Below, piece after piece: positions 429 to 26,900 of a stretch of DNA of 37,678 nt (position 1 is the first letter of the stretch; every line of letters starts with the position of its first letter). The DNA comes from Streblomastix strix (taxonomy: Eukaryota). The notes beneath the pieces are model-generated. The model ran no database searches, was not told the DNA's origin, and saw only the letters and a program-made list of their open reading frames with translations. The position numbers and the translations under genes were made by a program. Where the stretch lies: positions 1 through 37,678 of the forward strand of contig SNRW01000036.1 in assembly GCA_008636045.1 (NCBI GenBank). Reading direction: 5' to 3'.

Positions 429-2789
429 TCAATCTCTTTTTTCTTTATCTTTCTGATTTTCCTCATTAATTGTTTATATTTATACAAGTGCTTCTTTAAC
501 TAAAGATTTAATTTCTTCTTTTTTCTCTTCATTCCAATCTTATTATACCCGCAATTCATCAAAATATTATTTATTAGCTAATTTCTTTATTTTTTCTTAA
601 ATAGTTGAAGAAATTTTTAAATTGTTTTCATTTGATCCAAACTTCATCAATGAAATCGTAAGTTAAATACATTCCCATAATTATGCATCTTCTTCGATTA
701 ACTGCTTCTCAAATCCATTTGATAATATTATATCATGATTGTCTAGTATTTAATAATTAATATTTTGAAATAATTATTTTTATAAATTAAGTAATATTAT
801 TTCATAAATTATAATAAAAATACTTCTTGATTCAGCAAGAAAGGTTAGTTCTTCAAAATCAATAGATTTAAACATTGATTTAGTTTTGAGCATATTTATA
901 ATAAAGATTTTTATTTTTGGAGGAAGAGGAAGTGCTTTAAATAAAATGGCAATAATTTTTGCAATTTAATAATGTATATTCCAATATTTACAATCCTCAT
1001 AAATATTGATAATTTTTTGAATTATTTCATCGTTGGTCAATGATTGGTAATATGGATGTTATGATCCTTAAATCTATCCTTTTGCACTAGATTTAACAAT
1101 TACAAGTATAATATTACATTATTATAATCTTATAACTTTATCTTTATCAAGAGGAATAAATTTTAGAAGATGAAGAAAAGGGTTAATAAAGTTTGTTTCA
1201 TCAACTACTATTTCATTTAATTTAGAGTTGTTCATAATCAATAATTTAACAATGTCTCCAATTACAAATTGTTGTCCTTCAATTTCATCTTATAATCTTG
1301 TTTTAACACAAATATCATACAGTAATATAATTAATCCATCTTTGATTAATTCAACTAATTTGCTATCATTTTGAATTTCTACAATTCATTTAATACAAAC
1401 TAATTTATTCATTGTTTCAGCATCTTCTAATGCGCTTAAGAGTTATTTTGCTTCATCTCCGCATTAATTGTCATGTTTAAGATAAATTATTCTTGAATAA
1501 TAGATAGAATTATAAATTGATTATTTAGTTTATTATGTTCCATAGATAAACATATTAAGAATAAGTCTAAGTGAATATTTGATTATCTTTGGATCAACAA
1601 TCTTTTCCTTATTTGAATTTCTAAGAAAAAAATAATAATATTTTATATATTAATAAATAAAAAAAATATAATAAAAATAAGATTATATTAAAAAATTTAC
1701 TTCATACTCAATGTATTATATTGATATTTCTATTCCACCAATAGAAATTATTGCTTCATGATTCTCTTTAATAATAATAAATGAATAATTAATAAAGAAT
1801 AATGGAAAATATAATATAAAACTAAATTTAAATATAAATTATTATGAAATAAAAATTTTAATTATAATTACAATAATTCAGATTTTTTAACCTTTATTCA
1901 TTGATATATATATCAGAGATTATAATGCTAATTTAATATTAATATTATTACCGGATTATGTTTAATCATATAATTATCAAATTATTTGTTACTGATTTTC
2001 CATTGGAAGTTTAATTCCCTAAGTTTGAAGAATAGATAAAAGTTAACAAGAATAAAACTTAATATTCAAATTAATATCTTTATTCATTAATATATCTTAG
2101 ATTATTGTCATCAATCATCCCTATTGGTCCAATTCATCAAAATATGGATGATGATATGATGTATATATGATTTAATCTAAATTTAATTTACCTCCAGTTT
2201 ATGATGGAATATTTAATTATTGTTGCTTCCATCCTTTTTAGATAATGAAGATTAAAGTTATTAAAACGGCTTCTATAATATCTTAATCTTTATTATTAAA
2301 TAATGATATAAGAGTTTGAATTATTCCAATCTCAAATAATTAATGAGTTTGATTCAAAGAACCTAAACAGCAAATTATTCTTATCACCGCAATAATGTTC
2401 AGTGTTATTTGATCAATAGGTGAATTTTTGATAAAATCAATCAATTAATTAATGAAGCCTGATTGTATTACTAGTCCAATATCTTCACTTCTTCTATTTA
2501 ATCTCAAATTTACTATTTCAACCATATTTTCTATAATTTAATTACATTCACGTTTAATTCCCTCAGTTAATTGTTATTATTGGGGTTGAATAGATTTTAA
2601 AGTTTTAAACACATTTGAAATATATATGTATAAATCAATTGATGATTCATAAGTTTCTTTAAGTGATGAAATTTATTATTTAAAGAGTCTTATTTATTCT
2701 AGAGAAATGTTTTGAGTTGATGGAAGTGAAGGAAACGATATATTTTGATTTAATTATAAAGAAGAAGATGGCAGTTATACTAATTACAT
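429..2789 (-). CDS. ARM/HEAT-like alpha-solenoid protein, 4 exons, ~690 codons, with three internal in-frame TGA codons (recoded gene or young pseudogene)
   Basis: ATG at 2789; three GT-AG introns (~1891-1766, ~1707-1621, ~823-742) join in phase; recurring motifs HPYF/HPYY, LP(L)P, ENH/NNH; ends GAT TGA TGA (429-431, 426-428). Internal TGA at 2115-2117, 1977-1979 and 1386-1388; no frameshift found. Confidence 0.7.
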
Positions 2790-3196
2790 TGGATCTACAA
2801 ATAATAATAAAAAAAAGATAAAAATTTGAAAAAGAATTAGATAAAAAATAAATTATTTATTTTTCACACAAAAAATTGAGTTTATTTGTAAAATTTATAT
2901 GTTAAATATATCAAGAAATAGAGATGTTTAATATATAATTAAATTTCGTTTTAAAATTAAGAATAAATGTTGTAATATGAGTTAAAGCAATTTTTTTATT
3001 TTTTTTAATTTTATTTTGTTAATTTGATAGAATTTTCATTTCAAAGTATAAATTATAATCATATAAATTGTATTTATTCACAAATAATCAATTTTATTGT
3101 TTAATTTATAAAATAGACAAAATGAACAGAAAAATTAACAAAAATTATTATTTTTGTGAAATATAACAAAATCAAAACAGAAATTTGTACTCAATG

Positions 3197-6100
3197 TCAG
3201 AAATTTCCTTGGCCAGTTTTTTTATCCGGTGGAGGATTATTAATTCTATTTGGTGAAATGTTAACATCTTCAATATCATGCGAGTTTCGCAAAAAAACAA
3301 TATCGTTTTCAACTCCAAATGTTGTCTTTCGAAATATTGGAGATTTCTATTTTGATTGATATTTTGACCAAACAGGAGGCTGGCGGTTGATTGAAGAAGA
3401 TAATGTTCCACTGCTTCCCCAGGGTCCTTTATTTACTCCTTTTAATTATTGTAACTAATCTTTTTAAAACTATGATACTGATTATTTTGGAAACGATGTT
3501 GATGAAGATTTCATACTATAGCTCTATTTATATTCAATAATACTTGATGATGGTCTTTTTCTTTATATTGAGTTATTAGGATAAGTCATTCTTTAATTAT
3601 AAGTAGATGAAGGAGGAGGTGATAATAATGAAGATTAATATGAAGGCTGAGTTTGTTGAGGTTAATTAATTGTTGGTGATAAATTTGATTATATTAATAT
3701 ATCTTTTTATTCTTAATCTTTTTATTATTATTATTCTTATTCTTTATTTTTAATTTCATCATCTTCAGGAATATATCCTCTTATTCTTTTCTCATTTTTA
3801 TTCCCAAAATCATCAAGAATTTATCCATTCATATCTTAATCTTTATCTTTTTCTATATCTCTTATCCAACCAGATCTATCCTTTTTTCTATCTTCCTCAT
3901 CATCTATGGAATCATCATCATCTCTGGAATCATCATCATCATCATCATTATCTTCTTCTTCTTCTTCTTCATCCTCATCATCATCATCCTCTTCTTCTTC
4001 TTCTTCTTCCTTTCCAACATCATCAGTTCCAAGAGCTTCTCTCACTTATCCATTCAATTTATTTATCAATTCACGAATATCATTTTCTCCTTATCCACCT
4101 ATAATATCACATTGTAAATATAAATAAACAATCAAATTGAATTATGAACATATAATAAATTACAAAACCTTCTGCAGTTAATGTTCCTTATTCAGCTAAA
4201 TCTACTGCTCTTCTAAATTAGCCAAGCATAGCACCTAAACATAAAAAATAGATTATATTATTTAAATAAATAAATAAATATATTTATAATTATAATTATA
4301 AATATTTAATAATAATCCATACCTATCTTTTATTATAATAAAGCTTCTTATTCTTCCAATCTTTTAACTTATTCTCTTTCTTTTTCAACAGCAGACTTTA
4401 TTTAGTAATAAAATAAACATTAAATATAAAAATAAAATAATTAATATTCTTCATTCATCTTTATTATGACTAGTTCATTTATTCTTCTACTTTTTTCTTA
4501 TATTTAAATTTGACTACATACGTTCATATCATCTTTTGCTCTTTCCATGAATCTTTATTCAGCTGCAATCTTTGATTTATGAATAGCGGCTGTCTTTGCT
4601 AATACTTATTCTAATTCTGCCAATTGTCTATCAATAATTGATTAAAATAAGTCATAAGAAAAATATCATAATTATATTTTGTTATTTAATAATTTATTAC
4701 CTGTTTGAATCAATCTACATTACAAATTGCATTCTTTTATCTGCTTCAATTTTATTTAAATGTTTTAATTCTTCTAATTTATCTGAGAATACACGAGCCT
4801 ACAAACATTAACAAAGAATATTAAAGAAACAAACAGCAGTAATAATAAAAATAATATCTTTATTCTTTTTAATTATTAAAATTTATTATTCATATAAACC
4901 TGCATCTCATTCTCTCTTTTTCCTTCATTTATTACTTATTCTCTTGCTTCTTTAAATCTTAATAAATTAAAATTATAAAATATGAATAATGAATAATACT
5001 TTTATATTACATTTATTTCCTTTTGTTCAATTATATATTAATCTTCCTATTATATATATTTCTACCCAACCTTTTCTATTTGACTTAATCTCTCAATTCA
5101 TCTTCTTTTCTTTGTTATCTGTGTCTTTCTTCTTCTTCCTCAGATAATCTATTAATATTTAATAAATGAATAATTAATTAGAGTTAAACTAAAAAAGTTT
5201 TTATTTATATTTTCCCATATAAATATTCTTTCTAATTTATAATCTTCTTTAACCTTCTATCAACTCTTCTCTTCTCTTCTTCTCCCAATCCAATTTCTTG
5301 TGCTAATTCATGTGATACTGCTGCCTAGTTATATAATAATATAATTGTTTATAATAATTGTTAGGTTAATATAATGCTTAAACAGCTTGACAATGTTTAA
5401 TATTATATCTTAAATTTAATAATATTTTATTTTTCTTTTCATACTTTTTAAAGGTCAGCGAGGGTATCTTTATGTTTTTTTAACTTTTCTTGCTTTTTCT
5501 CTCTCCTATTTAAATAAATAAATAAATTAGTAAATAAATAATAATAACAATTTTATACTTTTATTTTTCATCTATTCTTTTCTATACTACATCCTGTTAT
5601 TAATCCATAGTTTTTCTCCACTTTTTCCCTTCAATCTAAAATATAATTATTATGATATAATAATAATAATTTATTAATTTAATATAATATAATATTCATT
5701 CAATTACGATTAATACCTCTCCTATATTTTATTTATGCATTGCAAGAGCTCTTTCTTTTTTCTCTCTTTATTAAGCTTCACGAAGATCAGCTGCTTCAGC
5801 AATTTATTATCTATTAATATTGTAATAATATAATTAATAAAATTATTTATAGTTATTCTTATATAATTACTTATATATATAATATATATATAATATACCT
5901 TGACACTCCCTCTATGTTTCTGAGAGCTTCTTCTTATCCTCTTCTCTAATAATCTTCTTCATCTTCTTTCTTTCTTTCATTCATATCCTATTTTGCTTAT
6001 ATTGACACTGTACGGAGAGGTTGAACTGTATCATTGTCCTATTATTAATAAGTGAGATAAAGAAATTGTAAATAAAAATATGGAGACAAATTGAAATATA

Positions 6101-9013
6101 TGGTCAATAATAACATATTTTCATTTATATTTATTTGTATATTCTTTAATTTGAATTATTTATCCTTTTATTCTAATAATTTTATTATAATATTCAAATA
6201 CTTATTTATTCATTCGCCAATGAACTTTATCCATTGATTCTTACCTTTCTCCTTCATCAGCACTGGATATATAATAAATATAATAAATAACAAAATGAAT
6301 TAAGAAACATATCCAATAAATGTAAATATGTCAAAAAGCAAATTTGCACTTGAATGTAAATATCAAAATATAAATAGAAATACTTCCTCACTCTTTATTC
6401 AGCACCATTAATCCATTTATTTCTATCTTAACTTACTGCATTTGATTCAAGTCTTTTAACAGCGAGATGACCTTTTTATTTTAAGAAGATCTAAATTATA
6501 ACAAAATATTGGAAAGTTAATAATGTAATTAAATGAAGATCATTAATGTTTTTTATTTAGTTCTTGCAAACTCCATTTTCATCATCTTCTTGTGATTACT
6601 TTGTTATGCTATTAAGAATATATTAATGATTATAATAAATAAATAAATTATTATTTATAATTGAATTTTAATTATTTAATTTCATTATTTTGATAAAAAT
6701 AAATTAAATAAACTTATCTATATCTTTAACTACTCTCATTCTTTCAACAATTGCATCTTCTTCTTTCTTTAATCGAGCTAAAACATCTGCATCCTGAATT
6801 AATTGATAGGTTGATAATAAATATGAATAATATAATAATACAGTATATAATATATAATAAATATTTTCATTTTTTTTCTTTTCTCTAATTTAATCTTATT
6901 CAATAAAGAATGTATTTTATTACCTAATTAATAGTTATTATTGGTACTCTATCAAATGTAGGATATGTAAAGAGGGCTTCTGGTTCTGAACTTATTCCTG
7001 AATTGTTTGTATATAAGATAAAAAGAAAAGAAAAAACGAATTAATAAAATATATTGTTTTTTTAAATAATAATAATCAACACTCATCTTTATATTTATTC
7101 ACACCTTAGAATCCGCCAGCTAATACTCCATCTAAATTATATGCATCTTTATATAAATATAATAAATTAATATAATATAATTCATCTCTATTATATATAT
7201 TATATAATAATACCTCCAATCTATCCATATCTATCTCCATCTCCATTCATCTTCCTCTTATATAGAGCTTATGCTAATATGGCTGAATCAGATGATCTAT
7301 CTATTTATATATGTAGGAGATGAATATAGGAGAAGAATATAGGAGAAGAATTAATAATATAACAAATATAATATATAGATTAATAATTCATACATTTCTG
7401 TTTACCAAGTCTTTTTAATCGTGCATTTCTATTAGCCTAAATATAATATAAACATATTCAATAATATAAATATTATTTATATCCTTATAAGATATCAATG
7501 ATTATAACCTCTCCATATGCACCAGATGGATATGAAAGATTAATTGACTTAACAATTGAATATTGTGGGGATCTTGGAGTAGGAATTGGTGTAAATGGCT
7601 ATAATAAGTAATATAATATATATAATAGAATTAAGATTAAATAATGTAAATAAAAATGTTAATTAATATATACTTTTATTGTATAAAATAACTTACGAAT
7701 CTTTGCTGGGCTTTCCTATTCAATAAATATTAATAAATTATATGAAACAACAAATAAAATGTTCATATTTGTAATAAATCATATTAAATTCGAACCTACA
7801 ACAATTTATGAGCAAGAGTCACCAATTAATGCACATCAGTATATGAAGGTGAAATGAGGTTTAACATCTCCAAGTATTATCTGGTTGATTTCTATAGTTG
7901 TTACTTCTTAGTTAGTGATGATTAAGTCTGAGATGTATAAGTAGTCAATGATTACTAATCTTTCTATTGTGAAGTGTAAGAAGGATATGGTAATAGAGAT
8001 TTAGCCAATGCATCTATATTCCTATTGAAATGAATCCTCTATTCTCTCTCCTTATCATCCAATAACATTGGAATTAGATGTTGATATTGTGGATAGCTGA
8101 AGAAGAAATCAATTTCACGAGCTTCCTTCATCTTCAATAGTTATTATCTATTGAGAATACAGTATGCAACAGCTACACATAGTAGATATTCAGGTTAACA
8201 AGGATTGTTTCTCATAAAGAATGTATGATCCATTATTACTGCCCATTCTGATAATGCAAAGAAGTCAGAAAATAAACTACATAATGTTTCCCATATATAT
8301 GTCTGGGGAGTTAATCCTAATTTAGTGAAATGTTAATGAAGCTCTTAATCATAGTGTATGAGAATAGCTTCTGCTCTTTTAAGAACACGAGCTGGAGGAC
8401 CAGGAAGAGTATCAAACCAATCTGAACAATAATTCATCAATAATGTAATGCATATCTCAACACATGCTACTTCATTGTCTATGATCTTAACAAATGGATA
8501 TACAATACTGGGTATGAGACCTGCACGTACATCTGTTGACTCATGATTATGCATATTCTTCCTTTGGATTAAATCTAATACAACTTCTGGTTTCTGTCTT
8601 TCACGTACTCCAATATCACAACAAACAGGAGACCAATGTGCAAGTGCGTTCATCACACGGAAGAAGCGCTAAGCAAGGCGATTATCTAATATAGGATAAA
8701 GATGGGGCATGTATGTTAGACCTGGGTGAGTACCTTTTGATTTCAAAGAAGAAACCCCAGAGCTGGACATAGGAATACGAAGAAGGTGCTACCAATAAAT
8801 GCGCCGTTTCTCTTCTGGAAATTCACCAAGTTCTCGAAGAGCACCACGAATCTGCTCTTCTTTTAATCCTTTTACTACACCGCCAGGCGGAGGGCTAGAT
8901 GGTGTTTCACGAGGTGGTAAGGTTTCACGGCCAAAAGAGATGCTCTTCTTCAGACCTGTTTTGAAAGTTAAATTTTAAATAAAAGTGTTTATAGCAGCAT
9001 AAATATTAATCAT
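3197..9013 (-). CDS. TBC1D31: TBC1D31/WDR67-like Rab-GAP TBC protein with long coiled coil and acidic/low-complexity tail, ~22 introns
   Basis: Translation with TAR=Gln: LRELGEFPEEKRRIYWQHLLRIP...KGTHPG...RVMNALAHWSPV...PSIVYPFVKI...WFDTLPGPPARVLKRAEAILIHYDQELHQHF...YIWETLCSLFSDFFALSEWAVIMDHTF, matching the TBC1D31 TBC region as I recall it. Downstream exons join in phase to TGA at 3197-3199. Start codon (9013) is tentative. Confidence 0.8.
7314..7351. repeat. 13-nt tandem repeat (TAGGAGAAGAATA x ~3) in an intron of the TBC gene
   Basis: taggagatgaata taggagaagaata taggagaagaat read directly. Confidence 0.8.
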
Positions 9014-9429
9014 TTAATAAAATTTTATGAAATATAATGATTCAGAGTTTGGAATTCATTTTTTCTTTCCAAATTTTTTTGATCAAGTTTAATCGACCAA
9101 CCATCAAATCAAAAATTGATAATTTTAAAAATATATTTAAAACTATTGCATGATTAATATAATTTATAGAATAAATTTGATTTATAACTGTTATATCACT
9201 GGAATATATTATGCGACAAATTGCTCTTAAAATATGCTATTTAAATTGTTTTGTACCAAAAATTTATATTGTTAGAACATGCACATGTATAAAACATGCC
9301 TGCAAAACGCGGTTCCATGGATTGCAAGAGAGAGATTAATTTGTTAATTATTTATTGTATAAGATCATCTAAATATTTTTACAATTAATAAATTAATAAA
9401 ACTAGTGTATAAACATCGTTTCTGGAACT

Positions 9430-10361
9430 TCAGTTTTTGGTGCAAGTGTAAATGTAGTGAACTTCCTGACCATCTGATGCTGATTGAAGTACAACACCAA
9501 CCTGTGGTTTTGGTAGTGTGTTCACCGATACAGACCAGTTGCTGAAGTGGTAAAGAATAATATTTTTATATGAAAAACAATTTTGAAATTATATAAAAGA
9601 AAAATATGATCATACTATTCTGATGCTTATAGATACGCTAATCTGTTCTGCGATGTTCCATATGAGACTGCAAAGAAGACACCTCCTGGTCTAAGGACTC
9701 TAATGAATTGAATACAGATCATATAATAAATAATAATAAATATAAAGTAAATCCATACTTGCTAATCCCTGAGAGCATTTTCTGTACATTTGCATAGGAG
9801 CCATCACCACAGAGAATAGAATCCATTGTTCCTTTATCAATCACTGCATCATAGATACCCTCGCCTTGTCTTCCAAGTTCAAGGACATCTCCAACCTCAA
9901 CTGTAATGAAAAAAAACATAGGTTTTAACAAAATTTATAGAAAATGGATGAAAAAATGAAAAGTGAAAATGAAAAAACATCTGAGTTCACGACGATCTTC
10001 TGCACGTTTCTTTACAAGATCGATGGCTACTGGTGATATGTCTATGCTTGTTATATTCCTATACCCGTCATCATACATATCTTCCTACAATCCTGCAAAT
10101 ACAGAGAAAAAGAAATATTAATTTAAATAAAAAAATATTTTTTAAGCAAACTTGAAGTTCCAACTCCAACTTGAAGGATGTTGCCATTCTTATTAATAAC
10201 AGCATCTATGAATGGCTTCAGTGCGCTATAGCGTTGGAACCACTCAAATGGCTGCTGGTCGCGTGTGTAGCGCTCATTCCTAAAGATTGTAAAAAAATAA
10301 TTATATAATTCAAAAAATACTGTACACACCAGTAATCTGCTTTGCCGTATTATGCGCACAT
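9430..10361 (-). CDS. Class I SAM-dependent methyltransferase, EEF1AKMT4/ECE2-N/METTL13-N-like, copy 1 (6 exons)
   Basis: MCAQYGKADYW/NERYTRDQQPFEWFQRY...ILQVGVGTS/RLQEDMYDDGYRNITSIDISPVAI...YDAVIDKGTMDSILCG...VLRPGGVFFAVSYG...HYIYTCTKN-TGA. All five introns are GT-AG and in phase. Confidence 0.92.
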
Positions 10362-10745
10362 TACAAAACTCACTAAACAAGTTGGGAACTATACAAAAAT
10401 AATTGAAACAAAAAGAAATTAAAATTAATATTAAAGAAACAAACGAAGGATAATCTTAAGTTAAAAAAATATTATATTTTTGTGTAAATTATAGGTTTAA
10501 TATTCAAAATTGATTTTATTAATAGGTTTAAAAGTTAATAAATCTGAATATGAAACTTTCAAATATGAATTTTTTGAGATTTTGCAGTTAATAAATAGAA
10601 ATGTGTACTAAAGAGCAAATTCTCGATTTAAATTTGATTAATTTATATTTAATTTATTTTAAATATGCACTATAATGAGATATATTCACCAGTATATACA
10701 TTAAAATTAAATCAAATTGATGTACAAGCCAGAAATATCAATTTA
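10362..10745. repeat. Upstream non-coding region of methyltransferase copy 1, homologous to ~16200-16570
   Basis: Co-linear similar blocks, e.g. 10608 ctaaagagcaaattctcgatttaaatt vs 16441 ttaaagagcaattcctcgttttaaatt; 10720 tgtacaagccagaaa vs 16554 tgtacatgccaaaaa. Confidence 0.7.
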
Positions 10746-11299
10746 TGTTCCTGGCCGAGCAATAAGTATAATGCAGAAAATAAGCATAGAATATGAGTAT
10801 ATGCATCTGTATTAGTATAATATTTTACAGCGCATTGTGTTCGAGCTAAGAGACAGAAAAACGTACGATCCGGCCTATACCGCTAATTTTTTTGTGATTC
10901 AATAATTTTGCGCTAGTTTTTATTGAACCGGAATAATATATTTCTTTAAAAAATATTTATATCAGTTTATTCAAATCAATTTTAAGTATGTAATTCAATT
11001 TCCATTATATATATTACCCTGTGATGCAATTTAAAAAATATTTATTTTATATTAATATACATAATAAAATATAAACTATTACATAAAAAATTATTTCAAA
11101 ATAAAACAAGGTATCTTTTTTCTCTCTTATTTCTAAATATAAGTTATTTATGACATTTTACTGTATTTTACTCAAATTTTTTAATGTGTTTATATTTGAT
11201 TAATAAAAAAATAATAATATTATTTTATAGACCATTGTATTCAGAGAGTATTCATTTAATTAGTGCAAAATTAATAATTCTTCACAAAGAATAATCTAA

Positions 11300-14200
11300 A
11301 TGGAAGATTCTGTGATAAAGCGATATATATCCAAATAAAACTTCGCATAAAATGATTAAATAGATGTCATTGTTCAAGAAGATGTATATTAATATGAATT
11401 TTTTAAAATTAACAAGATTTTTAAATTTATTTTACTTAATTTTTTTTGTTAACGTTAATATTTTAGGTTAAAACTCAAATATTAGTTCACACAGGACGAC
11501 TTTTGATGAGAGAAATATCAGACGATGAGAAATCTCTCTCATTAGAAAATCTTATAATTTTATCAATTACTCGTATGCTCATTACATCTTACTTTGCATC
11601 ATTTTGATTTATTTTACTTAAATTCATTTCATTTCATCAAATAAATTATGCTCATTTATTTATTTATAGATGGATGGGATGTTTGGTAAGAGATAGTCTG
11701 TGAGAGTGGAATAATAGAAATATTAACTGAACTTTTGCTGTAAACTAAGAATCTTAGAATCCGCGTATGAAACTTCTTGTTCTATTTATTATCAATAAAC
11801 ATATTACATATTTGTCTGATAGACGTTATGTGGAGCTGTGATTGAAACTATTCAACAACGTGAGACTGAGATTAATGAAGTAGTCGATTGGTAGACTTTA
11901 CTATCACCATTAATATCATTACTTTTTGTGTGTTTCGTTATTATTTTCTGTTCATTTATTATTATTTTCTGTTCATTTATTATTAATTTCGGTTTATTTA
12001 TTATTATTTTCTTTTCATTTATTATTATTTTCTATTCTGTTTGAATAGAATCGAGATGAGTTGGTTTCCGAATCTGGAAAACAATCATTAATAATGTCAA
12101 TTGAAATGCGACCTGAATCTTTTATAGGCCTTATCAATCTCAGTATATTTGATAAGGCTTCAGAAGTATTAGATACATATACATAATCATAATCGTCATA
12201 ATCATCTCAAGTAATACCAGAAATACCAATTACTATTCTTATTAAAGTACTTGAAGTTATTGAGAAAGGAGTTCATCTTATATTTGACTATGGTAAGAAA
12301 ACATATAATTTCAAAATAGCCTCATAGAAAGTTATTTACACAAATTCTGAAGAAAGAATCAAAGACCTTTTGAGTTCTATTCTTTTTATATTATAAGAGT
12401 AAGAAGAAGCAGATGAATTTGAAGGGACATTAAAAGAGAAAGGTTAACGTATTGAAATTCAATAAATTCGATAACGATTGAGTATTGTTGAAGAAAAAGC
12501 TCGTGTTGCTGAAGATCGTATCAAATAAGCAGAAGATAAATTGAAAATAGAATAATAATGAAATAAGGAAATTGAAGAATAATTATAATAAGAGTAAAAT
12601 TTAAGGAAAATAGCTGAAGAAAGAGCATTTTTAGCAGAAAGCAAGTTGAAAACAAGAGATTCAATTAATTATTAAAAATATAAAGAAGAACTTGATTACA
12701 AATTAAATATTGATTATAATAAATCACCAACAAATCTTCATTCACCTCAATATATTCATTCTCCATTTAGTACTCCTCCTCCAAATATCAATAATTCCAC
12801 ATCTTATATTCCTTCCTCATCAAATAATACATCACCATTACATATTCACTCATCATCTGGTTCATATTCACCAATTAATGTTCATTTCACATCATCAAAG
12901 GAATAGTTTGACATTAGCACACCTTAATAAGGTATTCAATCTTAATAAATATCTTCTTCAGGACGTGCAATTCAATTTCATAAGAATCTGACCTTGGTTC
13001 CAAGAAGTTAAATTCCTATTCGATCACCAATTTAAGATATTTATCAATTTTCTAATCAATCTCCCAATAAAAATATGCATTAATTACCCGTTTCTCAGAA
13101 TAATAATATTAAACAGTAATAACAAAATAAATCAACTTCAACATTTTATTCATCATTATAACCTCAATCACAATCAAATACCAAATCAAATAATAAAATT
13201 CAAACAAATAAATCTGCTTTTCTATCAAATTCAAATTCATCTCAATATATTTCTCCTGAAGTAGCAATGCTTAGTTCAACATCGGGTATATTATACTATT
13301 AATCATTTTATGATATTTTATAAAAATTTAAATCAAATTTTGATAAATAGCATCATTTTCTTTTGTCGTTTTTTTTTCTAATCTATCAATATTTATATCC
13401 TTTTTATAATTCTTAGATGCTAACTATTTTAATCCAATTACACCAAAGATGATTCTTCCAAACGGAGAAATTAAAAGTACCATTAAAGGAAACTCATTCA
13501 TTCATACAAATGAAGAAGACAGTTTTTGCACAGTTTTGATTGATCCAATTCTCACTGAGGGAGTTGAACTGATTGAATTTATATTTCATGGACATGAAGA
13601 TGAGTTGTTTAGTTTGATAAACAATAAATATATGAATTTGAGCTATTATATAAAATTAACATATTTAATACTCTTTTTAATTTATTAAATTGAATATTTT
13701 TATCAGGCGTAGGAATTGCTGAATCTTCAAAGGTTTTTGGACAATATGAAAGTCCTTATGGCCGTATGAATAATTAATTAATTATGAATATAAAATAATT
13801 AAAGTTTTACATTAATTTTTATTATATTAACAATTTTATCTTTATTTTTATTATTTTACATAATTTACTATTACTTTAAATATACTTAATAAACAATTAT
13901 TGAAATTATTTACTTATTTGGATGAACAAATATATCAGTCTGTATGTTTAATACTTAAATATTGTGATAAAAATAAAATAATAATAATTTTTATATGTAT
14001 TCATTATTTTGATTAAAAATATTCATATTCTATTATTATTAAATTAATTTTTTCAATGTTTATTATATAATTTGATATGCTCTTATTGATTTTAAATGAA
14101 TGCAATTTTAGTAAGTATGTTTTTGATAAATTAAATAATTTGTTTTATTGATTTATGATATATGATTTTACAAATTTTTTATTATTTATAATTTCTTTTC

Positions 14201-14942
14201 TACTTTTTATGATACAAACTATGAATTTATTTTTTTATCTGTAATTATATTATTCTTATTTCATTCATAAATAATAACTTCAGATTGTATGATTAAAATA
14301 TTATAATTATTTGATAATCACATATTTTTAATAATTTTTATTTTCAATTATTTACTTATTTTTTTATTATTTGAAAAATCTTAAATTTATTCTTATATAG
14401 GGGGATATAATACAATACGTTATAAAAATACGTATGATCATTAATATCATAATATTATTTACAAATTAATATATAGATTATTATTAAATATATTTATATT
14501 AGTCTTATTTTTTTTCTTCTAATTACATCTCTATCTTTATTCATATTATATCTTTATTAGGGGGGAACTGTCACATATAATAAGGGATAATAAGTTATCT
14601 TATCCAGTTTTGGGCAATTCTCCATTTCATTGTGAATAGAAAGTCTCTATTGAAGTAGACATGAACACAACTCCACGCACACTAACTTTCTTTATTGATG
14701 GCGAAGAGCAAAAGAATTCAGTAATTAGTATTCCTAAGTCCATAAGATTTTTCGTTTGTTTTCTGATACAATTTTAATATTATTTTAAAATGTAATCATT
14801 ACTTCTTCTTTTTATTTAGGCTTGCATATTAAAGTAAGGATCATCATTTGAAATCTCAAAGTTCCAGAGACTCACATATTCAAAAGCTTCTGGAGTCAAA
14901 TAATCTTTAGCGTGGATTTGGGGAGAAATGTGGAAATAATGA
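11300..14942 (+). CDS. ARM-like N-terminus + coiled coil + S/P/N-rich linker + C-terminal SPRY/B30.2-like domain, ~740 codons, 9 introns, one internal in-frame TGA
   Basis: ATG 11300; exons join in phase; C-terminal domain CTVLIDPILTEGV...SVGIAESS...VSIEVDMNTTPRTLTFFIDGEEQKNSVISIPKSIRFF...WIWGEMWKQ-TGA (14940-14942). Internal TGA at 12559-12561. Confidence 0.75.
11938..12033. repeat. 21-nt intronic minisatellite (TTATTATTTTCTGTTCATTTA, ~4.5 copies)
   Basis: Direct tandem units with few substitutions, filling most of intron 4 of the SPRY-like gene. Confidence 0.85.
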
Positions 14943-15215: not shown

Positions 15216-16199
15216 TCATTTCTTCTTGCATATGTAGATGTAATGTATCTCTTCTTCATTTTGAGCTGTTGGAACTGCGTGTATTTATTTAGCCTTTTAT
15301 TGCGATTTCTTTGGTGGAGCTTCAGTTACAGGACTCACAGTAACAGTCCAGTTGCTATAAATGCAGTAATTGATATAGTATATAAGTATATAAGTATATA
15401 TAATATATATAATTGTTATTATAAATAAATTAATTACAAACTATTCTGGTTACTACAAATATGCCATTCTATTCTCCTATATTCCATATGAGACCTCAAA
15501 GAAGACTCCATTGGCTTTGAGAACTCTAAATAAAAGATATTAAAATGAATGAATAATATATTATTAATATATTATTAATATATTATTAATATATTATTAA
15601 TATATTATTTATAATATCATACTTGCTAATTCCTGCAAGCATCTTCATTATATTTGGATATGCATCTTCCCCGCAGAGAATAGAATCCATTGTTCCTTTG
15701 TCAATGACTGCATCATAGATACCTTCACCATATCTACTCAGCTCCAACACATCTCCAACTTCAACTAATGTTAAGTTCAATATAAAAATAATAATATAGT
15801 AATAAGTATCACGTACATTTAAGCTCTTGTTTATCCTCTGCGCGCTTCTTAACGAGATCAATGGCTACTGGTGATATGTCTATGCTTGTTATATTCCTAT
15901 ACCCGTCATCATACATATCCTCTTACAATCCTGTAAATAAAGAAAAAGAAATATTAATTTAAATAAGGAAATATTTTTTATCAAACTTGAAGTTCCAACT
16001 CCAACTTGCAGAATATTGCTACTCTTTTTAATGTTTTAAATAATAGGTTTTTTGAGTGCGCTATATCGTTGGAACCACTCAAATGATTGCTGGTCACGTG
16101 TGTAGCGCTCATTCCTAAAGATTGTAAAAAAAAATTAATATAAAAATGTAAAAAACACTATACACACCAATAATCAGCTTTGCCGTATTATAAAGTCAT
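15216..16199 (-). CDS. Class I SAM-dependent methyltransferase, EEF1AKMT4/METTL13-N-like, copy 2 (6 exons)
   Basis: MTLQYGKADYW/NERYTRDQQSFEWFQRY...ILQVGVGTS...YDAVIDKGTMDSILCG...VLKANGVFFEVSYG...HYIYICKKK-TGA; same five intron positions as copy 1. Confidence 0.92.
15554..15608. repeat. 11-nt tandem repeat (TAATATATTAT x5) in intron 4 of methyltransferase copy 2
   Basis: Five perfect units read directly; absent from the equivalent intron of copy 1. Confidence 0.85.
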
Positions 16200-16651: not shown

Positions 16652-18892
16652 TCATGTGTGAGGTACGTTTGATAAATGCAAGGAAACATTCAGTGTCGCA
16701 TTTTTGGCATTGATTGCATTCTCTTTCACAAACCCATGAGATGTTTGCCCACAACTTGTTAGATGTCCTTCAATCTCTTCTAATCCTTCTTCCTCCAGAA
16801 GCTCAAGAGATTATTTAAGTTCCTGTGGAAGTCGCTATAGAGGAGGAGGCGCATTATGACGTATGTCTAATTCTCTTCCCAAATAAAGCTCCTTGTAGAA
16901 TACACTGATATTAACCAAAGTTTTGTTGATCTCATTTGTATTACCTTCTTCTCCATATTCACTACTTGCAACACTTACACCCAACACACTACCATAACCA
17001 GAGTGTGAAAGCTATATTTATATTTCATCATCATTCTTCTCGTGAATGAGCTGTAGAATCCATCTACTGTAATATCTGATTTCTTTTGCTTCCTTATCTT
17101 AATTCTCATCATATTTCTAATAAAGTTTGTATTTACTTAATTTGACCAGAGAAGAAAATAGATTTGGAGCTGTTGCAACAGTTCTATAGTTTATGCTGCT
17201 TAATAATACAATTCGATAAAGAATTTCTACTGATGATAATACTGTGCTTTATGTACATGAGAGTGGTTGTTATTCTCCTTACTCTTACTGTTATTGTTAT
17301 GAGATTGAATTTGAAGATGCAAATTGGACAATGAAATATGTAAGATGTGGGAATATTGAATGCTGGTCAATGAGATAATTTTGAATTTGGCGATCAAACT
17401 ATGAAACATATCTAAGCACTTCATAAGAAGATGCTTGCAATTGAAGTAATTGAGCTTCTTATGTGTTAATACTTAATAAGCATTATGGTTCAATCCTACA
17501 GTTGATGTGCATCAAAGGAGATACTTTTTCATGAATCTATAAATATTCAGTGAGGCATTTCATATTGAATCCATTATATTATGAAGTTTCACTTAAAGTA
17601 TTAAGTGTTTTTGTCAATGATTCAATCTTTTTATTCATTTCCTTATCATCTTCAACTGTGTTATTGTTCTTTATCAATTCAATAAGAGAGGATATATTCT
17701 TGGATATAACTGTTGTGCATATTTTCAGATTGTCTATATTAATGTACTATTCATACATTATAATCAGATATATCCTTAATAATTATTCAGTAATTAATGA
17801 GAACGATTGATCTTCTTTTTCTTCAAGAACCATTCTTTGTTTCAATAGATCAAGAATCTTACTGATCAATCCCGATTTCTTTATATCATTGAAAAGAAGA
17901 GATTATGAATTGTCTCCAGTTGATAAATATACAGAAGGAATTCTAGAAACACGATAGCAAACAAGCTCCAAGACTCTCAACAAACATATTTAAGATGTTT
18001 AAGATAAATCTGTCAACTGCTATTGTATGATTGAAAATGTTTCATTATTAAATATCATAAGCAACTTATATTCATTCACATTACAATACTGATCATACAA
18101 TTGATTAAGTTATTGAGTCTTTTCTTCTTCATTTAATGTATCTGATGTAAATATATCTTCAATATTATGGGCATCATTATCTGAATATATGTTATTATAT
18201 ATATTTATATATAATTTAATAATAAAATATTATTAACTTTGACAGTAATATTAAAATTAAAAATTAACAATAACAAACATTCTTCTTCTTCTTCCTCATG
18301 AATGAAACAATTCTTCATAATTTAAATCTTTAATTATTATTTATCCATTACAGTTCCATTCAAATATTTGCTTGCATTATAAGCTTTATTGATATCCTTC
18401 ATTGTAATAAACGCAAATCCTCGTTTTTGTCCTTAATTTGAGGGAATATATATAGAAAGCACAGAATCATCTTAAAATAATTTCTTCAGTTGTTCTTCTG
18501 TTGTGAATAGATTTAAGTTATATACAATTAATTGAATTGGATCAGGTTATACTGGTATTACACTTATAATTGGAGAAATATTCTGCATTTTTGCACTGCT
18601 TAATTTCTACAACTCAGATGCAAGTGCCTCTACTGCAGCTTTTGCGATACTTGGTTTGAATTCTCCCTCAAGACAAGTAACTAAAAAATCTTTATCAGAA
18701 TCCTCTTTAATTAGTAGCATCATCATTTTCTACAGAGCAATTATAAAAAATTTCACAAAAAAGCTGAATGCAAACTACAACTTGACTGTCAATTTAAGCT
18801 GAAACACCAATTTCTTGCAAACAATTCATCACCAATTCACTAAGCTACTTGTCGTCGACTGCGTTCTTCTGTAATTTGGCAGAACTCAGCAT
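16652..18892 (-). CDS. RRM-containing protein: N-terminal helical (PWI-like) region + RRM + ARM-like C-terminal region, 3 exons
   Basis: RNP2 LIVYNL and RNP1 RGFAFITM, followed by LNGTVMDKQQLKI; long open last exon ending EEEGLEEIEGHL...LSNVPHT-TGA (16652-16654); ATG 18892. Confidence 0.8.
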
Positions 18893-19308: not shown

Positions 19309-19929
19309 TCACTCATTCTTCTGTACAGAACTTGCTTCAACTACCTCCTTCTTACTTACTTAACCCGAAGCTTTCTACATCAAGTTCTTGAACTTCAACA
19401 ATATCCCTTCGCTGTATGGACGATCAATTTCCCTCTTGAACAGGTATATCTGCACTAATGGATTGAAGACGAATTGTATTGGACTCAATAGGATTTAAAC
19501 AATAACTTGTTGGATAGAGTGCATAATAAAGAAGAAGAACGCTGTGAGGACGCTCGATACTAACATTCCCTTAAGAGAACCGAAGACTTCAGATGTATCA
19601 TATTCAGGAATGGACTAAAGAGAAGTGGTTTCAACACTTAAATATTAAATAATAATAATTATGAATAAATAAGAATGTTCAAACGGATTTCCATTAAGTG
19701 CATCCTGCCACTTTATTTCAATAACCTTTACTGTCTTCTCATCACTATATTGTCTCTTCTTGATCAAGTTATTGATGAATAAGTACAGTCCCAATATTAT
19801 CAGCTAAATTCCTATATTAATTTCAAGGAGTAACCATTGCTTGGAAGATGAATCCCAATCAAAGTATGGAACAATGAGAAACTTCACAAAAAGCGTCAAC
19901 ACAACTCTGACAAGTAGAACATTCACCAT
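19309..19929 (-). CDS. PHO88: Pho88/Snd3 family ER membrane protein (SND targeting pathway), 2 exons
   Basis: Hydrophobic N-terminal segments, then ...SIPEYDTSEVFGSLKGMLVSSVLTAFFFFIMHSIQQVIVQILLSPIQFVFNPLVQIYLFKREIDRPY..., resembling the EYD / Q...P / xxxLF...RPF pattern of Pho88; ~185 aa; TGA at 19309-19311. Confidence 0.75.
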
Positions 19930-20929: not shown

Positions 20930-23900
20930 ATGAAAACAGACTCTGCAAATAGTGACCTTCTTCTTTCAGATTTAGTAGAAATTTACCAACTTGAGGATAT
21001 TCGTCAGTTCTTTATAACATAATCTCGTTCTGCTGATATGTTTATAACAGAAGATTAGTTTGTGGAGTGTTTTACAAATATTTTGAAGAAACGATGTCCT
21101 GGAGAGTCTTTTCTGAGAGCTAATTTTAGATAAATAGATGCAGATTGTACGTAATAGAGTATATATCTCATTATTTATATTATTTATATTTATTTGTTTC
21201 TTAGTGTCTTGGTCAGACTTTAACTCCTTCTTCATTAAACAATTCAATTTACTCACATCCGGTGATGATGTTGAAGTCTGATTCAAATATTAATTCATAT
21301 AATTAATTTGTATTTATTTTCATATTAATATTTTAAAGGGAACAATTTATGATGCTGTTGATGAACTTGGCGTTGGAAAATACTAATAAATTTCAGAACC
21401 GTTTCATCGAGATTTTATTTCTTCATTTGACTTCTTTCCTAGACTTAGAATATATTTATCTGGAAGGTTATTATATTTCTATATATTATTCACTTATTAA
21501 CCTTTATTTACTTTTATTTTTATTAAACCTAATATAGTCTTGATTCTTTAGTAAAAGGATGGTCAATAGAATTGAATGGTCATTGCATGAAGACAATTGA
21601 CCACAGTTAAAGCACTAAAACACTCTTAAGTGAAAAAGCAGTTGATTATTTATCCAAATTAAGAGAAGCTGATGTTGATACATATAAATAACAAGTTAGA
21701 GTTCAATTGGATAAATAAAAAAGAAATGAATTGGAGAAAGAATTAAAGAAAGCTGCTGGAATTGATGTTGATAGTATTTGAATATGAGGATAAATTATAT
21801 ATTAATATTTATAGTATACATTATTCATTGTAATATTTATTTGTTATACTTATATATCTCATATCAGGTCCATCTTCAATACGTCCAATATCTCCTAATT
21901 CAAAATAAGGAAAAGAAACTCCTCAATCTTCATCAATTACTAATAGAAATAATAGTATGAATAATAACAATGATAATAATGATAATAATCCAAAGACAAT
22001 ATCATCAAGCCCATCTTCATAATAAACATTATCTTCTTCTTCTTCTTCTTCTCCTTCTTCTATGAATATAAATAGTAACTAATAAATAAATAAACCAGTT
22101 ATACCCAAAATAACATTAGGAATTTATAAGACTATTTCTCCGTTCTCTGAATTAAGCAGATAATTATCATAGGATAAATAAGGAGGAATTGGATTCAATA
22201 GAAATAAATACTCATCATCATTATTAGTAGCTGGAAGTAGTGCAATATTGAAGAATAAAGGTAATGCAAATTTAAATATAAATAAAGAGAATTAAACAAC
22301 CAGAACATTAATAAGCAATAATAATTATTAAGAATTAGACCAAACAAATAAAACAATTTCATCTGAATCTGGATCATAGAAAGGATTTAGTACATCAAGA
22401 CCATAATCTGCTTCTATTTAATAATAGAATGTAATATCATCTACTCATTCATCTTCTCATTCATAATAATAATCTTAATCTCGTCCACATTCTGCAATTA
22501 ATATGAAGACTCCAAATTTGGATAACTTTTCTTCTTTACTTCATTTTGACAAACCCATAAATGAATAATCAATAATAAAAGAATAAGCTGATATATCAAG
22601 AGCTCTATTTATGAAAGAGAAATCAATATCATATAATAAATACAAAGATCTTAATATGTACAATGATGCATCAAGAAAGAAATTCTTCCCACCAGGTTAA
22701 TCTGAGAAATAATCATCTGCTAATTTATTTGAGTAGATCAAAGCTAAATAAAAAAGATAGGCAGATCCTCCTTCAGTAGTTAACAATATGAATAATAATA
22801 CAAATATATTTGATACAATAATAAATCAGACTTCATAACCTTAATCAACATCTTCATCATAATCTTCATCAATTGTTACTTCATTCACTGGGAGAAGTGA
22901 TAATGTAAGCTCTTAAAGGAATACAGGTAATGATAATTATAGTAATTTATAGGCATTAAATATGAATATAATTCAATATAAAAATATTAATGAGCAATAA
23001 ATACCTTAATAAGGAAATGGAGTTACATTAAATACATATGTAAATATCATAGAGAAAGCGAATGAATAATAAAATATTAATAATATTAATATGAATGAAG
23101 ATGAAGAATAGAAGAGTAATTTGAATAGTAATTCTAATAGTAACAGTAATTCAGTGAGAAATTCTAAGAACTCACAAAGCCAATCAACATTGTAATTATA
23201 CCAGAAATAGAATCAATCTATTAATTCTCCATCTTCTGCATCATATCAATCATAATAATATTCTTTATTATCTCCATCTTCGCCTTCATAATCATAAAGA
23301 TTATAAAAATAGTAACAACAATTATTGAATAGTTAATTGAATAATATTTCAATCATAGCTGTTGCAGCTACTGCATAGACTATTAATAATATTCCAGCTT
23401 AATAGTTGAATTAAGCTTCATAAGGGAAACAACAATTTCTTGCAGCCAGAATAATGAATAAAACATTGGCTTTCTAAGCAGAAATAGATTATAAATAGAA
23501 ATTGATTCAAATTGAATAAGATCGATAAGAATAAGAAAGGCAGAAATTAATAGAAGAAGAGAAAGAGAAAGAGAGATAAAATGAATAATTAATGTTAATA
23601 GAAAAGAAGAAGCAGTTGATGATTTCCAGAGCTGCAGCAGCGGCTGGAAATGAATATTTGAGTTCATATCGATAAATTAATTCATCATCATCTTAATCTC
23701 AATAATAACTGAGCAAAATTAATTAAAATTCATAAATTAATTCATCAAAGAGTACATTAAATAAAGGAAACAAGAATAATTAATTAAGTAAATAAAATAT
23801 TAATTTGAATAGCAACAGTACCAAATAATTAAGTGTAATATAATAACCAACCATAAGTATAAATCAATTTACATCTCCAAGATCTTTATTCACTCCGCGT

Positions 23901-26900
23901 TCAATGCAGAACTAATTATAGACAATATTATCTCCATCTAATTAATCCATAACTTCTTAATCTACTCTTTAATCTGAAATATCTCCTCATTAATACTCCA
24001 TTTCTCATCCTAATGCAATTGAAGGTTATTCATCTTCTTCTTCATTATAATCTAATCAATAACAGAAGAATAAGAAGCCAATATCATATGAGGAATATTT
24101 GAAATAATTATAGTAATTTAGCAAATAATAATAAAATTAAAATAAAGATATAAATAATCAAGCGAAAGAATAAGAGGAATTATAAATAGTAAAACCCAAA
24201 TATTTCCCTTATTATCTTCCAGGAGAAGAAATGTGCGATGAAGATTATTCAATTATTAATATGAACATGAATTAGGAAAGTATGCTATATTATATTATTA
24301 AATAATTATACTAATATATATCCTTAAAATGAAATTAAATTAAAATAATAATTATTATTTATTATTTATTATCAATATATATAATTATAGCAACATAAGA
24401 ATCAGATCCACTGAAATTGAGATAATTGAATGTTCTTGGATATACTGAGGTTTGATATACATACACCATTCATTCTCATATTCAATATTTATTTACTATT
24501 TCCTCTTTATTTTGTATTAAATAATTAATAGCCATCAATATTAGATATTCGCTATGATGCTCTTGATGCAGCTGATGATATATTTGAAGCTAGATTACGT
24601 TTGAGAAAGGTTTTGAATATATAATTAGAGAATGAGAAAGAAATTAATAAATTATTGTCTTCTAAATTACATATATAATTAATAATTATTATGAACAGGT
24701 CTGGAATCCTCAATTACCAAGAAAAATAATAGATCCAATTTTAGCTCATGAATAATTTAGAAAAACAGAAAAATTAAATATCATATAATTAATTGTTTTA
24801 AAAGATTGTGAATGGATTTGTGTTTTAAGTTCAGATAGAACAGTTATATTCTATGAACCAACTTCATTCAGACCAAGAGGAATATTGAGGTATAATATAT
24901 AATAATTAATGATATAAATTGAAATTTATTTTTAATATATTTTTTTCATTCTTTCATTTCTTAGAGGATTTTCAACATTGTGTTCATGCATGATATCTGT
25001 ATAATCAAAATATTCTTCAACACAAAAAGAATCAATAATTATTGGCAAAATTGATGGTAGTATAGATTTACTATTTATAAATGAAGAAATATTAACTACA
25101 TAAAATGATATTTCAAATGAAGAAGGAATAAAATTAATAGAAAATCGAGTCAAAATATGGAATGTAAAAGAAAAGAAAGATAAAAATGATGATGAATAAG
25201 AATAATAAGGAACTTCAATAGTTAAAAGAAATAAGTCTCCTGCTCCTTCATCTAATGGATGGTAACCAATTCCAGTTGAGTCACTTGCAGCAACACTCAA
25301 ATTGTCAGTAAAAGAAGTGAAAGATGGAGAATATGAATATGAAGATGAAGAAGAAGAGGAAGAAGAGATGAAGATGAATTATGAAGGTGATGAAGATGAT
25401 ACTAATAAGGAATAGGATGAAGATGAAGAAGATGAAGATGATGATGAAGAAGAAGATGATTATGATTAGAGTACTAGTTATTGAGGTAGTTATGATAGTA
25501 ATAGCAACATTGATAATTTAGGAAGTAGATCAAATGTATAAACTAAAAGAAGTAATGAATTTTAACAACAGCAATAACAATCACATCATACACGTAGGAA
25601 TAATAAAAATAAAAATAAGAATAAGAAATAAGAAAAATCAGATGTTTTAAGTAATATTCACAATGTTATTGATATGTACAGAAATAAACAGGATAGAATA
25701 AATTATAAAGAATCTCAAAGAACCCAAAACAATTCAGGACATAATTCGCACAGTCCTTCAAGAAGATAAAGCAAATAATTATAGAAAGATTAATCATTAG
25801 TATTTCCCAGATCTTCTTCTCCATTAAAACAATAGAATGAAAATTAAATAAATAAATAAACTGAAGAAAACAGAGAAAATGAATAAAACTGTAAATAGAA
25901 AAGAAAAAGTAAAATTGATACAAAAGAAGAAGGAGAATAAAATAATAAAGAAAGAAATGTTGATAAATAAGAAAAAAACAGACGAAACAGTCGAATGTCG
26001 ATAATGTCATCAAGATAACCCTCATAAAGGAAGAGATTGTCCATTTCACCACCAAAGACTTCTTCTTCACCTTCACATTCACCTCGTTATAACAATTAGG
26101 AGACTCTGAAAACACCCAGAAAAAGCTAAAAATTTAATTTAAATCTGAATAAAATACAACAGCAACAATAACAGTAAGAATAAGAATAGAAATACAAATA
26201 ACAGCAGATGAAATAAAGTTAAAGTAAGAAAACATTCTTTGTTAAAAAGAAGAAGAAAGTATTGAAGAAGAAATCAAAAAGAAGAAAGAGAGGGAATATA
26301 AAGAGGTATAATTAATTAGAAATAATAAATATATGAAATATGAAATATGAATATTATATATTTATATGATAATTTTATTAAATATTATTTAAATAATTAC
26401 AAATAGATAATGGTTAGGAGATGCATTAGAAGATATAATAAAGTTGAGACCAAGAAAAGCATATAATTATTTTTAAGCTCATGAAACTGTTGTGACTCAA
26501 ATTATTTATTTGGAAGTATGAACTTTGTAAGAAAATAAATAAGTACTTTGAAGAATTAAATTAAATAAACATTTTTCTTTTAATTATATTTTTAATTATT
26601 TTATATTAATAAAGGAATTATTAAGTTTAGTAACATGTTCGCTTGATTCATCAATTGCAATCTGGGATTTAGATCGTTAAGTATGTGGAGAATAATAATT
26701 CAGAATCAAAATTAATTATAAAATAGAAATAAATTTTACTATAGATTTTTTTTCGTATATTAATTATTACATTAAATTATGTATTATATGCAAAGGTAAT
26801 AAAACATAGATTTGTAGAAGGACATACATAGTATATAATAATAATTATACTCAATATTATATTACTTATCGTTATTATTATTTCTAATTATCACCATATA

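Follow-up and report, generated by a model that had tools for sequence, protein, structure and literature searches.

Streblomastix strix is an oxymonad, a protist of the termite gut. In the stretch of its DNA analysed here (the window: 37,678 nucleotides, positions 1 to 37,678 of contig SNRW01000036.1, assembly GCA_008636045.1), TGA ends the genes and also stands in frame inside three of them, which raises the question of whether TGA is read as an amino acid in this organism or whether the genes that carry it are broken. A nuclear code in which TAA and TAG specify glutamine (TAR=Gln, NCBI table 6) is already known for S. strix (Keeling and Leander 2003, via PMC13002328 and PMC1501061), and the accessible parts of the literature on this code report TAR=Gln only, with no internal TGA. 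On balance we lean towards the view that the five internal TGAs are ordinary premature stops under table 6, in oxymonad genes that were recently inactivated or are weakly selected, and several observations speak for a real chance that TGA is instead an amino acid codon.

Genetic code and gene models

An ab initio parse of the window with table 6 gave nine gene models of 7898 codons in all, with 596 in-frame TAA/TAG codons (494 TAA and 102 TAG) and five internal TGAs. In the paralogue alignment of gene A, the columns under TAA/TAG (Q 0.20, E 0.19, K 0.16) resemble those under CAA/CAG, and TGA closes all ten genes whose end is visible, as had been predicted; both features of table 6, TAR as glutamine and TGA at gene ends, are thus present. 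The genes and sites concerned are the following.

429..2789, minus strand: gene A, ARM-repeat protein, 688 codons (Arm E=0.0007; introns as in paralogue L021)
2115..2117, minus strand: internal TGA, codon 225 of gene A; paralogue column V8 I7 T5 M1 L1
1977..1979, minus strand: internal TGA, codon 271 of gene A; paralogue column S5 Q4 A3 T3 K3 N2 E2
1386..1388, minus strand: internal TGA, codon 397 of gene A; paralogue column R in 17/24
3197..9013, minus strand: control gene, TBC/RabGAP protein, 1233 codons, no internal TGA
11300..14942, plus strand: gene B, 741 codons, 9 introns
12559..12561, plus strand: internal TGA, codon 301 of gene B, within a coiled coil, no alignable column
20930..34089, plus strand: gene C, WD40 protein, 3575 codons, long Q/S/N/D/E-rich insertions
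25482..25484, plus strand: internal TGA, codon 1308 of gene C, in a low-complexity insertion
25471..25521, plus strand: candidate in-frame 51-nt GT..AG intron spanning the gene C TGA, splice score 0.7

The original prediction had described the five TGAs as lying in three unrelated genes with intact frames and splice sites, and the table 6 parse agrees (2117-2115, 1979-1977 and 1388-1386 on the minus strand; 12559-12561 and 25482-25484 on the plus strand), but gene A lacks a kinase domain and one repeat. The +4 base was also as claimed, since it fails to separate internal TGAs (T,T,A,A,G; n=5) from terminal ones (T,C,A,A,A,A,A,T,G,T; n=10). Genes A, B and C are all free of frameshifts in this parse. 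Two frameshift flags raised by the parser were rejected, both being at region edges: at one, an RRM part continues into the next ARM part via a 98-nt intron, and at the other the window end cuts the last gene.

The model introns are GT..AG and short (median 88 nt), with splice scores from a minimum of -0.8 through a 10th percentile of 0.3 to a median of 3.1, and a GC content of at most 0.224 across all 75. A backup TGA lies within three codons of the stop in three of ten genes (chance P ~0.014), and the stop-to-stop gaps of convergent genes are only 167 and 273 nt, which suggests that 3' UTRs may be short. CpG is depleted in the window (o/e 0.47); CGA is used 32 times, never in gene A, and TGG occurs 56 times across the gene models. 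No tRNA gene was found in the window, and Rfam returned no match there at gathering score, a weak test for divergent SECIS elements. Five other conserved genes, 2371 codons together, contain no internal TGA (weak evidence, P=0.17), and neither do the 523-codon ARM model and ~935 codons of the gene A paralogue L021. In the TBC/RabGAP gene, all six exonic variants among those listed are synonymous, one of them being TAA/TAG.

Gene A and its family

The named relatives of gene A are kinase/ARM proteins of Streblomastix strix itself, which form a large family. Gene A is organized as follows.

2789-1892, 1765-1708, 1620-824 and 742-429, minus strand: exons of gene A
1766..1891, minus strand: intron 1, both ends seemingly retained in contigs of run X2
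1621..1707, minus strand: intron 2, GT..AG, missing from X2 record 9

Its three intron positions are all shared by L021, and its 3' end reads TGA TGA. The kinase domain, present in several paralogues, is absent, and one repeat (~40 aa) is missing with the frame kept; if intron 1 were retained, an in-frame TGA would follow at 1880-1878. Conserved columns are kept at 80 of 104 positions, and at 64 of 79 past the first TGA, the misses being mostly conservative. Among 18 paralogues without the NCBI partial label, ten end before the C-terminal part of the family and only three cover at least 80% of gene A, although these short copies might just as well reflect gene models cut at TGAs that are sense codons. 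Three proteins not labelled partial (P0017, P0043 and P0051) end abruptly before columns of E/D, F/L and E/Q/K, neither Arg nor Trp, and these ends are uninformative because the same result could come from a shift of frame immediately ahead of a T-GAA junction.

Some other features were considered and set aside: the GC content of only 0.23 in gene A, which might have pointed to decay, since L021 is at 0.20; its three introns of 3n length as an anomaly, since 29 of the 75 model introns are 3n; and the annotated C-termini of paralogues as a test of the code, which are uninformative. Word-based protein searches gave no match with gene A or with a gene C exon, and four with the family alignment. 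Pattern scans for further host DNA yielded one true paralogue among 45 metagenome loci, a further 42 loci under prokaryote titles, and nothing in viral contigs.

Residues aligned with the internal TGAs

Residue columns were alignable at the three gene A sites only, with 68 paralogue rows (24 + 22 + 22). It had been argued that the TGA contexts mostly suit Arg better than Trp. Trp is excluded, since neither Trp nor Cys occurs in any of the 68 rows and the summed log-odds over the three sites are -11.3 bits for W and -10.1 bits for C; the preference for Arg was not supported, with R at -1.6 bits (Q at -2.6) and Arg in 0/22 rows at each of the columns of 1977..1979 and 2115..2117. No residue that a tRNA might plausibly deliver scores above zero over the three sites, and a consistent aligned residue, whose lack was to count against the original prediction, did not appear at these three. 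Of the one-step changes that would create TGA in gene A, that from TAA is the most frequent, with 38% of the modelled rate.

Sequencing runs, alleles and splicing

Contigs of the DNA run X1, which may be the source sample of the window, show 0 differences from it over 1066-1753, 1880-2913 and 12550-13294, indicating that the TGAs at 1386, 1977, 2115 and 12559 are not consensus errors; assembly error therefore does not explain those of gene A. A contig of run X2 lacks exactly one GT..AG intron (1621..1707), for which reason we take it as spliced RNA, and it retains the TGA at 1386..1388, so that splicing-out fails as an explanation there too. X2 reads without gaps across 1880-2793; it carries TAA (Gln) at 2115..2117 and probably keeps the TGA at 1977..1979, no change being seen there among the differences listed (6 of 7). 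X2 has practically no coverage at 12559, and a further run, X3, has none over 1929-2152; we count neither gap as evidence. The alleles of gene A that share TGA are ~1% apart, and its exonic variants, among the 40 of 216 rows listed, are five synonymous and five non-synonymous (neutral P=0.07), against six and none in the TBC/RabGAP control.

Gene B starts with an ARM-like region followed by a coiled coil, a low-complexity region and a C-terminal domain without a Pfam hit, which we take to be B30.2/SPRY-like; the one variant listed behind its TGA is synonymous. Gene C presumably has a WDR49-like layout, and its TGA may lie inside the weak 51-nt candidate intron, which the parser does not favour (GC 0.27, exon-like by 6.1 log units).

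Discussion

TGA, the sole stop on this view, is one substitution away from TAA-Gln, TTA-Leu, AGA/CGA-Arg, GGA-Gly and TGG-Trp, and, these codons being very common, point mutations in dispensable genes can be expected to yield TGA at mixed columns. Gene A would then be a kinase-less family copy that has lost its function while still being transcribed and partly spliced, and three nonsense mutations would have accumulated in it, with TAA still segregating at one of the sites. A single recent mutation each would account for genes B and C, that of gene C perhaps being spliced out. Termination at the five sites and loss of function are our inference from this pattern. The columns of R, S/Q/A/T/K and V/I/T, over which no plausibly delivered residue scores above zero, the TAA of X2 at 2115..2117, and the absence of internal TGA from the other conserved genes, the ARM model and L021 all favour nonsense. 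So does clustering, together with the short paralogues: three of the five TGAs fall within 688 of 7898 codons, which under an evenly used sense TGA has P=0.006 for gene A and 0.018 for any gene of up to 750 codons. As in pseudogenes, the stops are clustered in a single copy at mixed columns.

Frameshifts beside the nonsense codons, which pseudogenes would also be expected to carry, were not seen in A, B or C; for gene A, the co-occurrence check that had been proposed thus came out as the original prediction held. The local indel rate is 9 per 115 mismatches (two paralogous introns and the duplicated methyltransferase 5' flank), and only ~2% of all substitutions create TGA, so that the probability of all five hits being TGA is 0.0005-0.002 at the local indel rate and 0.006-0.08 at a half to a third of that rate, both uncorrected for the choice of window in the original prediction. 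The lack of any frameshift argues against nonsense and gives TGA a real chance of being an amino acid. The same direction is indicated by the neutral divergence needed for three TGAs in gene A (~8%) while conserved columns are kept, by the synonymous half of its variants, by the synonymous gene B variant, and by a TGA transcript that is detectable despite the S. strix UPF1.

A position-dependent decoding that excludes Trp, in which TGA would be no unconditional stop, terminating only towards the end of the mRNA, and would be efficiently read inside genes as Arg, Gln or a mixture, is to us a serious, though lesser, possibility. In the form in which TGA stops only near the poly(A) and is read upstream by near-cognate tRNAs (Arg, Gln via the abundant UAA reader, or a mixture) we consider it rather unlikely. 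A seldom used but tolerated TGA would on this reading drift into low-expression, AT-rich genes at any column, which accords with five TGAs and zero frameshifts, with the conserved columns kept downstream, with the synonymous 5/10 of the variants listed for gene A, and with a TGA in a spliced contig that is common to two alleles. The internal sites lie 876-6804 nt of spliced sequence upstream of the terminal stop, and the possibly short 3' UTRs and the backup TGAs also fit. According to the available part of one study, yeast puts Trp, Cys and Arg at UGA (PMC5866558). However, the context-dependent UGA codes in the accessible literature all use Trp, excluded here, and the TGAs cluster in a single member of a family with many fragments. 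Gln at UGA would require a middle-position mismatch, which the Tetrahymena tRNA study of Schull and Beier from 1994 reportedly precludes. Ordinary leakiness would be too low to keep a gene with three TGAs working, since even in the context that permits most of it UGA is passed at ~8% (PMC13192750).

That some sites are spliced out, or are assembly or amplification artefacts, we regard as improbable. The 51-nt candidate over 25482 has a splice score within the range of the model introns, and early-fixed amplification errors are possible if X1 is the source sample; yet the GC of this candidate is above that of all 75 model introns, the intron candidates at 1388, 2117 and 12559 would cut conserved or clearly coding sequence, and the second sample, X2, retains 1386..1388 in a spliced contig and is gap-free over 1880-2793. 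The claim that TGA is a dedicated Arg codon inside genes, reached via CGA to TGA and read by a tRNA with a UCA anticodon, appears quite improbable. The column of 1386..1388, CpG depletion and the lack of CGA in gene A agree with it, but only one of three testable columns is Arg, the second allele has TAA at 2115..2117, 32 CGA codons persist in the window, and a nonsense change by CpG decay is an equally good account of the Arg site. UGA as Trp/stop, or as selenocysteine, is the least probable of all and very nearly dismissed. Parduczia and Amoebophrya sp. ex Karlodinium share this starting point of TAR=Gln and a single UGA stop, as far as the accessible parts of those reports go, but the Trp- and Cys-free rows largely refute both for gene A, the models use TGG for Trp in 56 codons, and neither UGA at Cys columns in gene A nor an Rfam match at gathering score in the window was found.

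If the TGAs are nonsense codons, the locus amounts to a known code and a few broken genes, and matters only as a warning when codes are inferred from fragment-rich protist genomes. If they are decoded without Trp, the loss of a dedicated stop, described for ciliates, Blastocrithidia and Amoebophrya, would extend to oxymonads, by a route that did not involve tRNA-Trp; many short predicted S. strix proteins would be annotation breaks and not pseudogenes, and, within the accessible portions of the literature found, no earlier context-dependent code is described from a metamonad, nor any that is not based on Trp.

Comparison with known systems

The window resembles the S. strix code as described in its sense TAA/TAG, terminal TGA, short GT..AG introns and S. 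strix paralogues, and differs in having five internal TGAs, which the accessible parts of those descriptions do not report. With yeast UGA read-through (PMC5866558) it shares an Arg insertion that would fit 1386..1388, but read-through there is, in the part available, a few percent at best, and the V/I/T and S/Q/A columns are left unexplained. In Parduczia and Condylostoma (PMC5304391, PMC10089648) and Amoebophrya sp. ex Karlodinium veneficum (PMC6394959), as far as these sources were accessible, TAR=Gln likewise occurs with terminal and internal UGA, and the flanking bases differ little between the two. There, however, internal UGA is common (2,518 coding TGAs in C. magnum) and Trp-aligned (72-83% in Amoebophrya; PMC6394959), in the same accessible parts, whereas it amounts to 5/7898 codons here and is never at Trp. 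For the spread of internal UGA over conserved genes that a Trp/stop code would be expected to show, the window gives 0/2371 codons in five such genes (P=0.17, weak evidence) and one TGA in a WD40 low-complexity insertion. Nonsense alleles and transcribed pseudogenes occur in expanded gene families. Gene A differs from such copies in having no frameshift and in its residual signs of purifying selection, and it resembles them in its several stops, its mixed columns, one polymorphic site and the short copies in its family.

Gene models and codon use

The window has a GC content of 24.5% and is CpG-poor (CpG o/e 0.47). A parser trained on the window itself, whose exon ends are predictions, returned nine gene models, whose 75 introns have a median length of 88 nt and a GC content of no more than 0.224. 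The 7898 codons of the models, counted without the RRM part and without the last gene, cut by the window end, comprise 596 TAA/TAG, 56 TGG, 32 CGA and five internal TGA. Under table 6 (TAA/TAG as Gln, TGA as sole stop), the internal TGAs of the original prediction were confirmed in frame:

2115-2117, minus strand, codon 225 of gene A (ARM-repeat gene)
1977-1979, minus strand, codon 271 of gene A
1386-1388, minus strand, codon 397 of gene A
12559-12561, plus strand, gene B
25482-25484, plus strand, gene C (WD40 gene)

TGA likewise closes all ten gene ends found, and the +4 base, as proposed, is no guide to whether a site is internal or terminal. In three of the ten genes a backup in-frame TGA lies at most three codons from the terminal one (chance about 0.014, or 0.08 without the cut last gene):

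429-426, minus strand, gene end
3199-3191, minus strand, gene end
36860-36849, minus strand, gene end

This is a hint that termination may be leaky; TAR=Gln ciliates have a similar excess of backup TGAs.

Pfam supports Arm (weakly), TBC, RRM, Pho88 and WD40 domains; methyltransferase, importin-alpha-like, WDR49-like and B30.2-like are putative labels. Two extra introns called around 2117 were replaced by the three that gene A has in common with its paralogue on contig L021, because homology and an ungapped contig of X2, an RNA-like run, show exon there. At 16652-18892 (minus strand), an RRM domain and a long stretch resembling ARM repeats belong to a single gene, linked across a 98-nt intron (18278-18181). 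Gene B carries a very AT-rich 637-nt intron (13764-14400, plus strand), several times the median, and gene C (20930-34089, plus strand) reaches 3575 codons, inflated by Q/S/N-rich insertions with 364 TAA/TAG codons.

Presence of the TGAs in DNA and RNA

Contigs of four runs were compared with window positions 300-14900. Those of X1, a DNA run that is possibly the source sample, span 1066-1753, 1880-2913 and 12550-13294 without any difference, matching the TGAs at 1386, 1977, 2115 and 12559. Record 9 of X2 spans 1071-1619 and 1708-1803, omitting exactly the GT..AG intron 1707-1621 (intron 2 of gene A), which makes RNA its most likely origin. The three differences in the first piece of this record are all listed, and 1386-88 is not among them; this TGA thus sits in the spliced transcript of a second allele. 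Record 10 covers 1880-2793 without a gap and has seven differences; among the six listed, TGA 2115-17 becomes TAA (one contig, depth 6.3), and TGA 1977-79 is probably kept. Intron 1 (1766-1891, minus strand) is apparently retained in X2 contigs and intron 2 spliced, so that X2 seems only partly spliced.

Relatives of gene A

A profile-free search with gene A returned 71 proteins (27-48% identity); the 30 looked up comprised 24 Streblomastix strix proteins by name, two JGI hypotheticals and four Logan proteins, which suggests that the window comes from S. strix or a close relative. From the best local alignment per protein, with a separate alignment giving a matching picture, the columns were V8 I7 T5 M1 L1 at codon 225, S5 Q4 A3 T3 K3 N2 E2 at codon 271 and R17 A2 Q K N Y E at codon 397. 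Summed log-odds over the three sites were highest for Thr (+0.9) and Ala (-0.1), for which we know of no decoding route at TGA; R had -1.6, Q -2.6 and W -11.3. No column could be aligned under the TGA of gene B, within a coiled coil, or under that of gene C, which falls in a low-complexity insertion.

The kinase domain present in the paralogues P0004, P0005 and P0009 is missing from gene A, as are about 40 residues near 1100-1130 (minus strand), roughly one repeat, joined in register and in frame. Among 18 paralogues not labelled partial, ten end before the family end and three cover at least 80% of gene A. The L021 paralogue runs for about 935 codons without TGA; its contig is probably chimeric, the oxymonad kinase/ARM gene (1-3075) being directly joined to bacterial-looking genes (3076-5296).

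Frameshifts and selection

The frames are intact, as had been claimed, with no frameshift beside the five TGAs. The methyltransferase-like gene is duplicated (9430-10361 and 15216-16199, minus strand), both copies being intact, with five intron positions in common; over their first 165 codons they differ at 42 codons synonymously and at 33 non-synonymously. Their aligned introns 1 and 2 and 5' flank (three more introns had diverged too far to be counted) show 115 mismatches and nine internal indels, eight not a multiple of three. With about 2% of substitutions creating TGA, five TGAs and no frameshift have P = 0.0005-0.002, or 0.006-0.08 if the coding indel rate is half to a third, values weakened by the choice of the window for oddities.

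Gene A still has the conserved residue in 80 of 104 columns (paralogue mean about 0.81) and in 64 of 79 behind its first TGA, a measure biased towards the query, although three neutral TGA hits would require about 8% divergence. Among 40 of 216 variant rows listed, its exons have five synonymous and five non-synonymous variants (neutral P = 0.07), and those of the TBC gene six and none.

Interpretation of the internal TGAs

We consider it somewhat more likely than not that the five TGAs are nonsense alleles, and the observation as a whole is most likely ordinary. Three of the five fall within the 9% of codons in gene A (P = 0.006, rising to 0.018 when any gene of up to 750 codons is allowed), and TAA is the commonest starting codon for a one-step change to TGA (38% in gene A), which agrees with the TAA allele at 2115-17. 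Position-dependent read-through, with a residue not fixed or other than Arg, is a tentative and less likely reading. The missing frameshifts and residual selection in gene A raise its odds, the backup TGAs hint at leaky termination, and in yeast Trp, Cys and Arg are incorporated at UGA codons (PMC5866558, in part). Clustering in gene A and columns of mixed type lower them, however, and a non-Trp context-dependent code has a low prior. The consulted part of PMC13192750 puts UGA leakiness at about 8% at best; plain leakiness could not carry three sites in one gene, and read-through would need to be efficient. UPF1 is present in S. strix (PMC1501061, in part).

The original prediction held that the contexts mostly suit Arg better than Trp. 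On these columns (35% identity, three sites) Trp is excluded and Arg weakened, and Gln or a mixture of residues may be compatible. TGA=Arg itself appears very unlikely: Arg fills 17 of 24 rows at codon 397 but none at codons 225 and 271, and one allele has TAA at 2115-17. It is also quite improbable that the TGAs are mainly due to splicing or artefact, since the 1386-88 TGA is kept in a spliced contig, although a 51-nt in-frame GT..AG candidate spans TGA 25482; given its marginal splice score and exon-like composition, we allow it about one chance in four of being a real intron that removes this TGA. Trp or Sec is scarcely credible, with neither Trp nor Cys in the 68 paralogue rows under the gene A TGAs. 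A new kind of genetic code here has about one chance in three.

Among the titles and abstract openings listed, none reports sense UGA in oxymonads. The parts consulted of PMC13002328, PMC10120064 and PMC1501061 give TAR=Gln only; the first infers the code from tubulins and mentions neither TGA nor UGA in its main text. In the context-dependent codes described in the parts consulted of PMC5304391, PMC10089648 and PMC6394959, UGA is always Trp and used often, whereas here Trp occupies none of the 68 paralogue rows and internal TGA accounts for five of 7898 codons in the window models.
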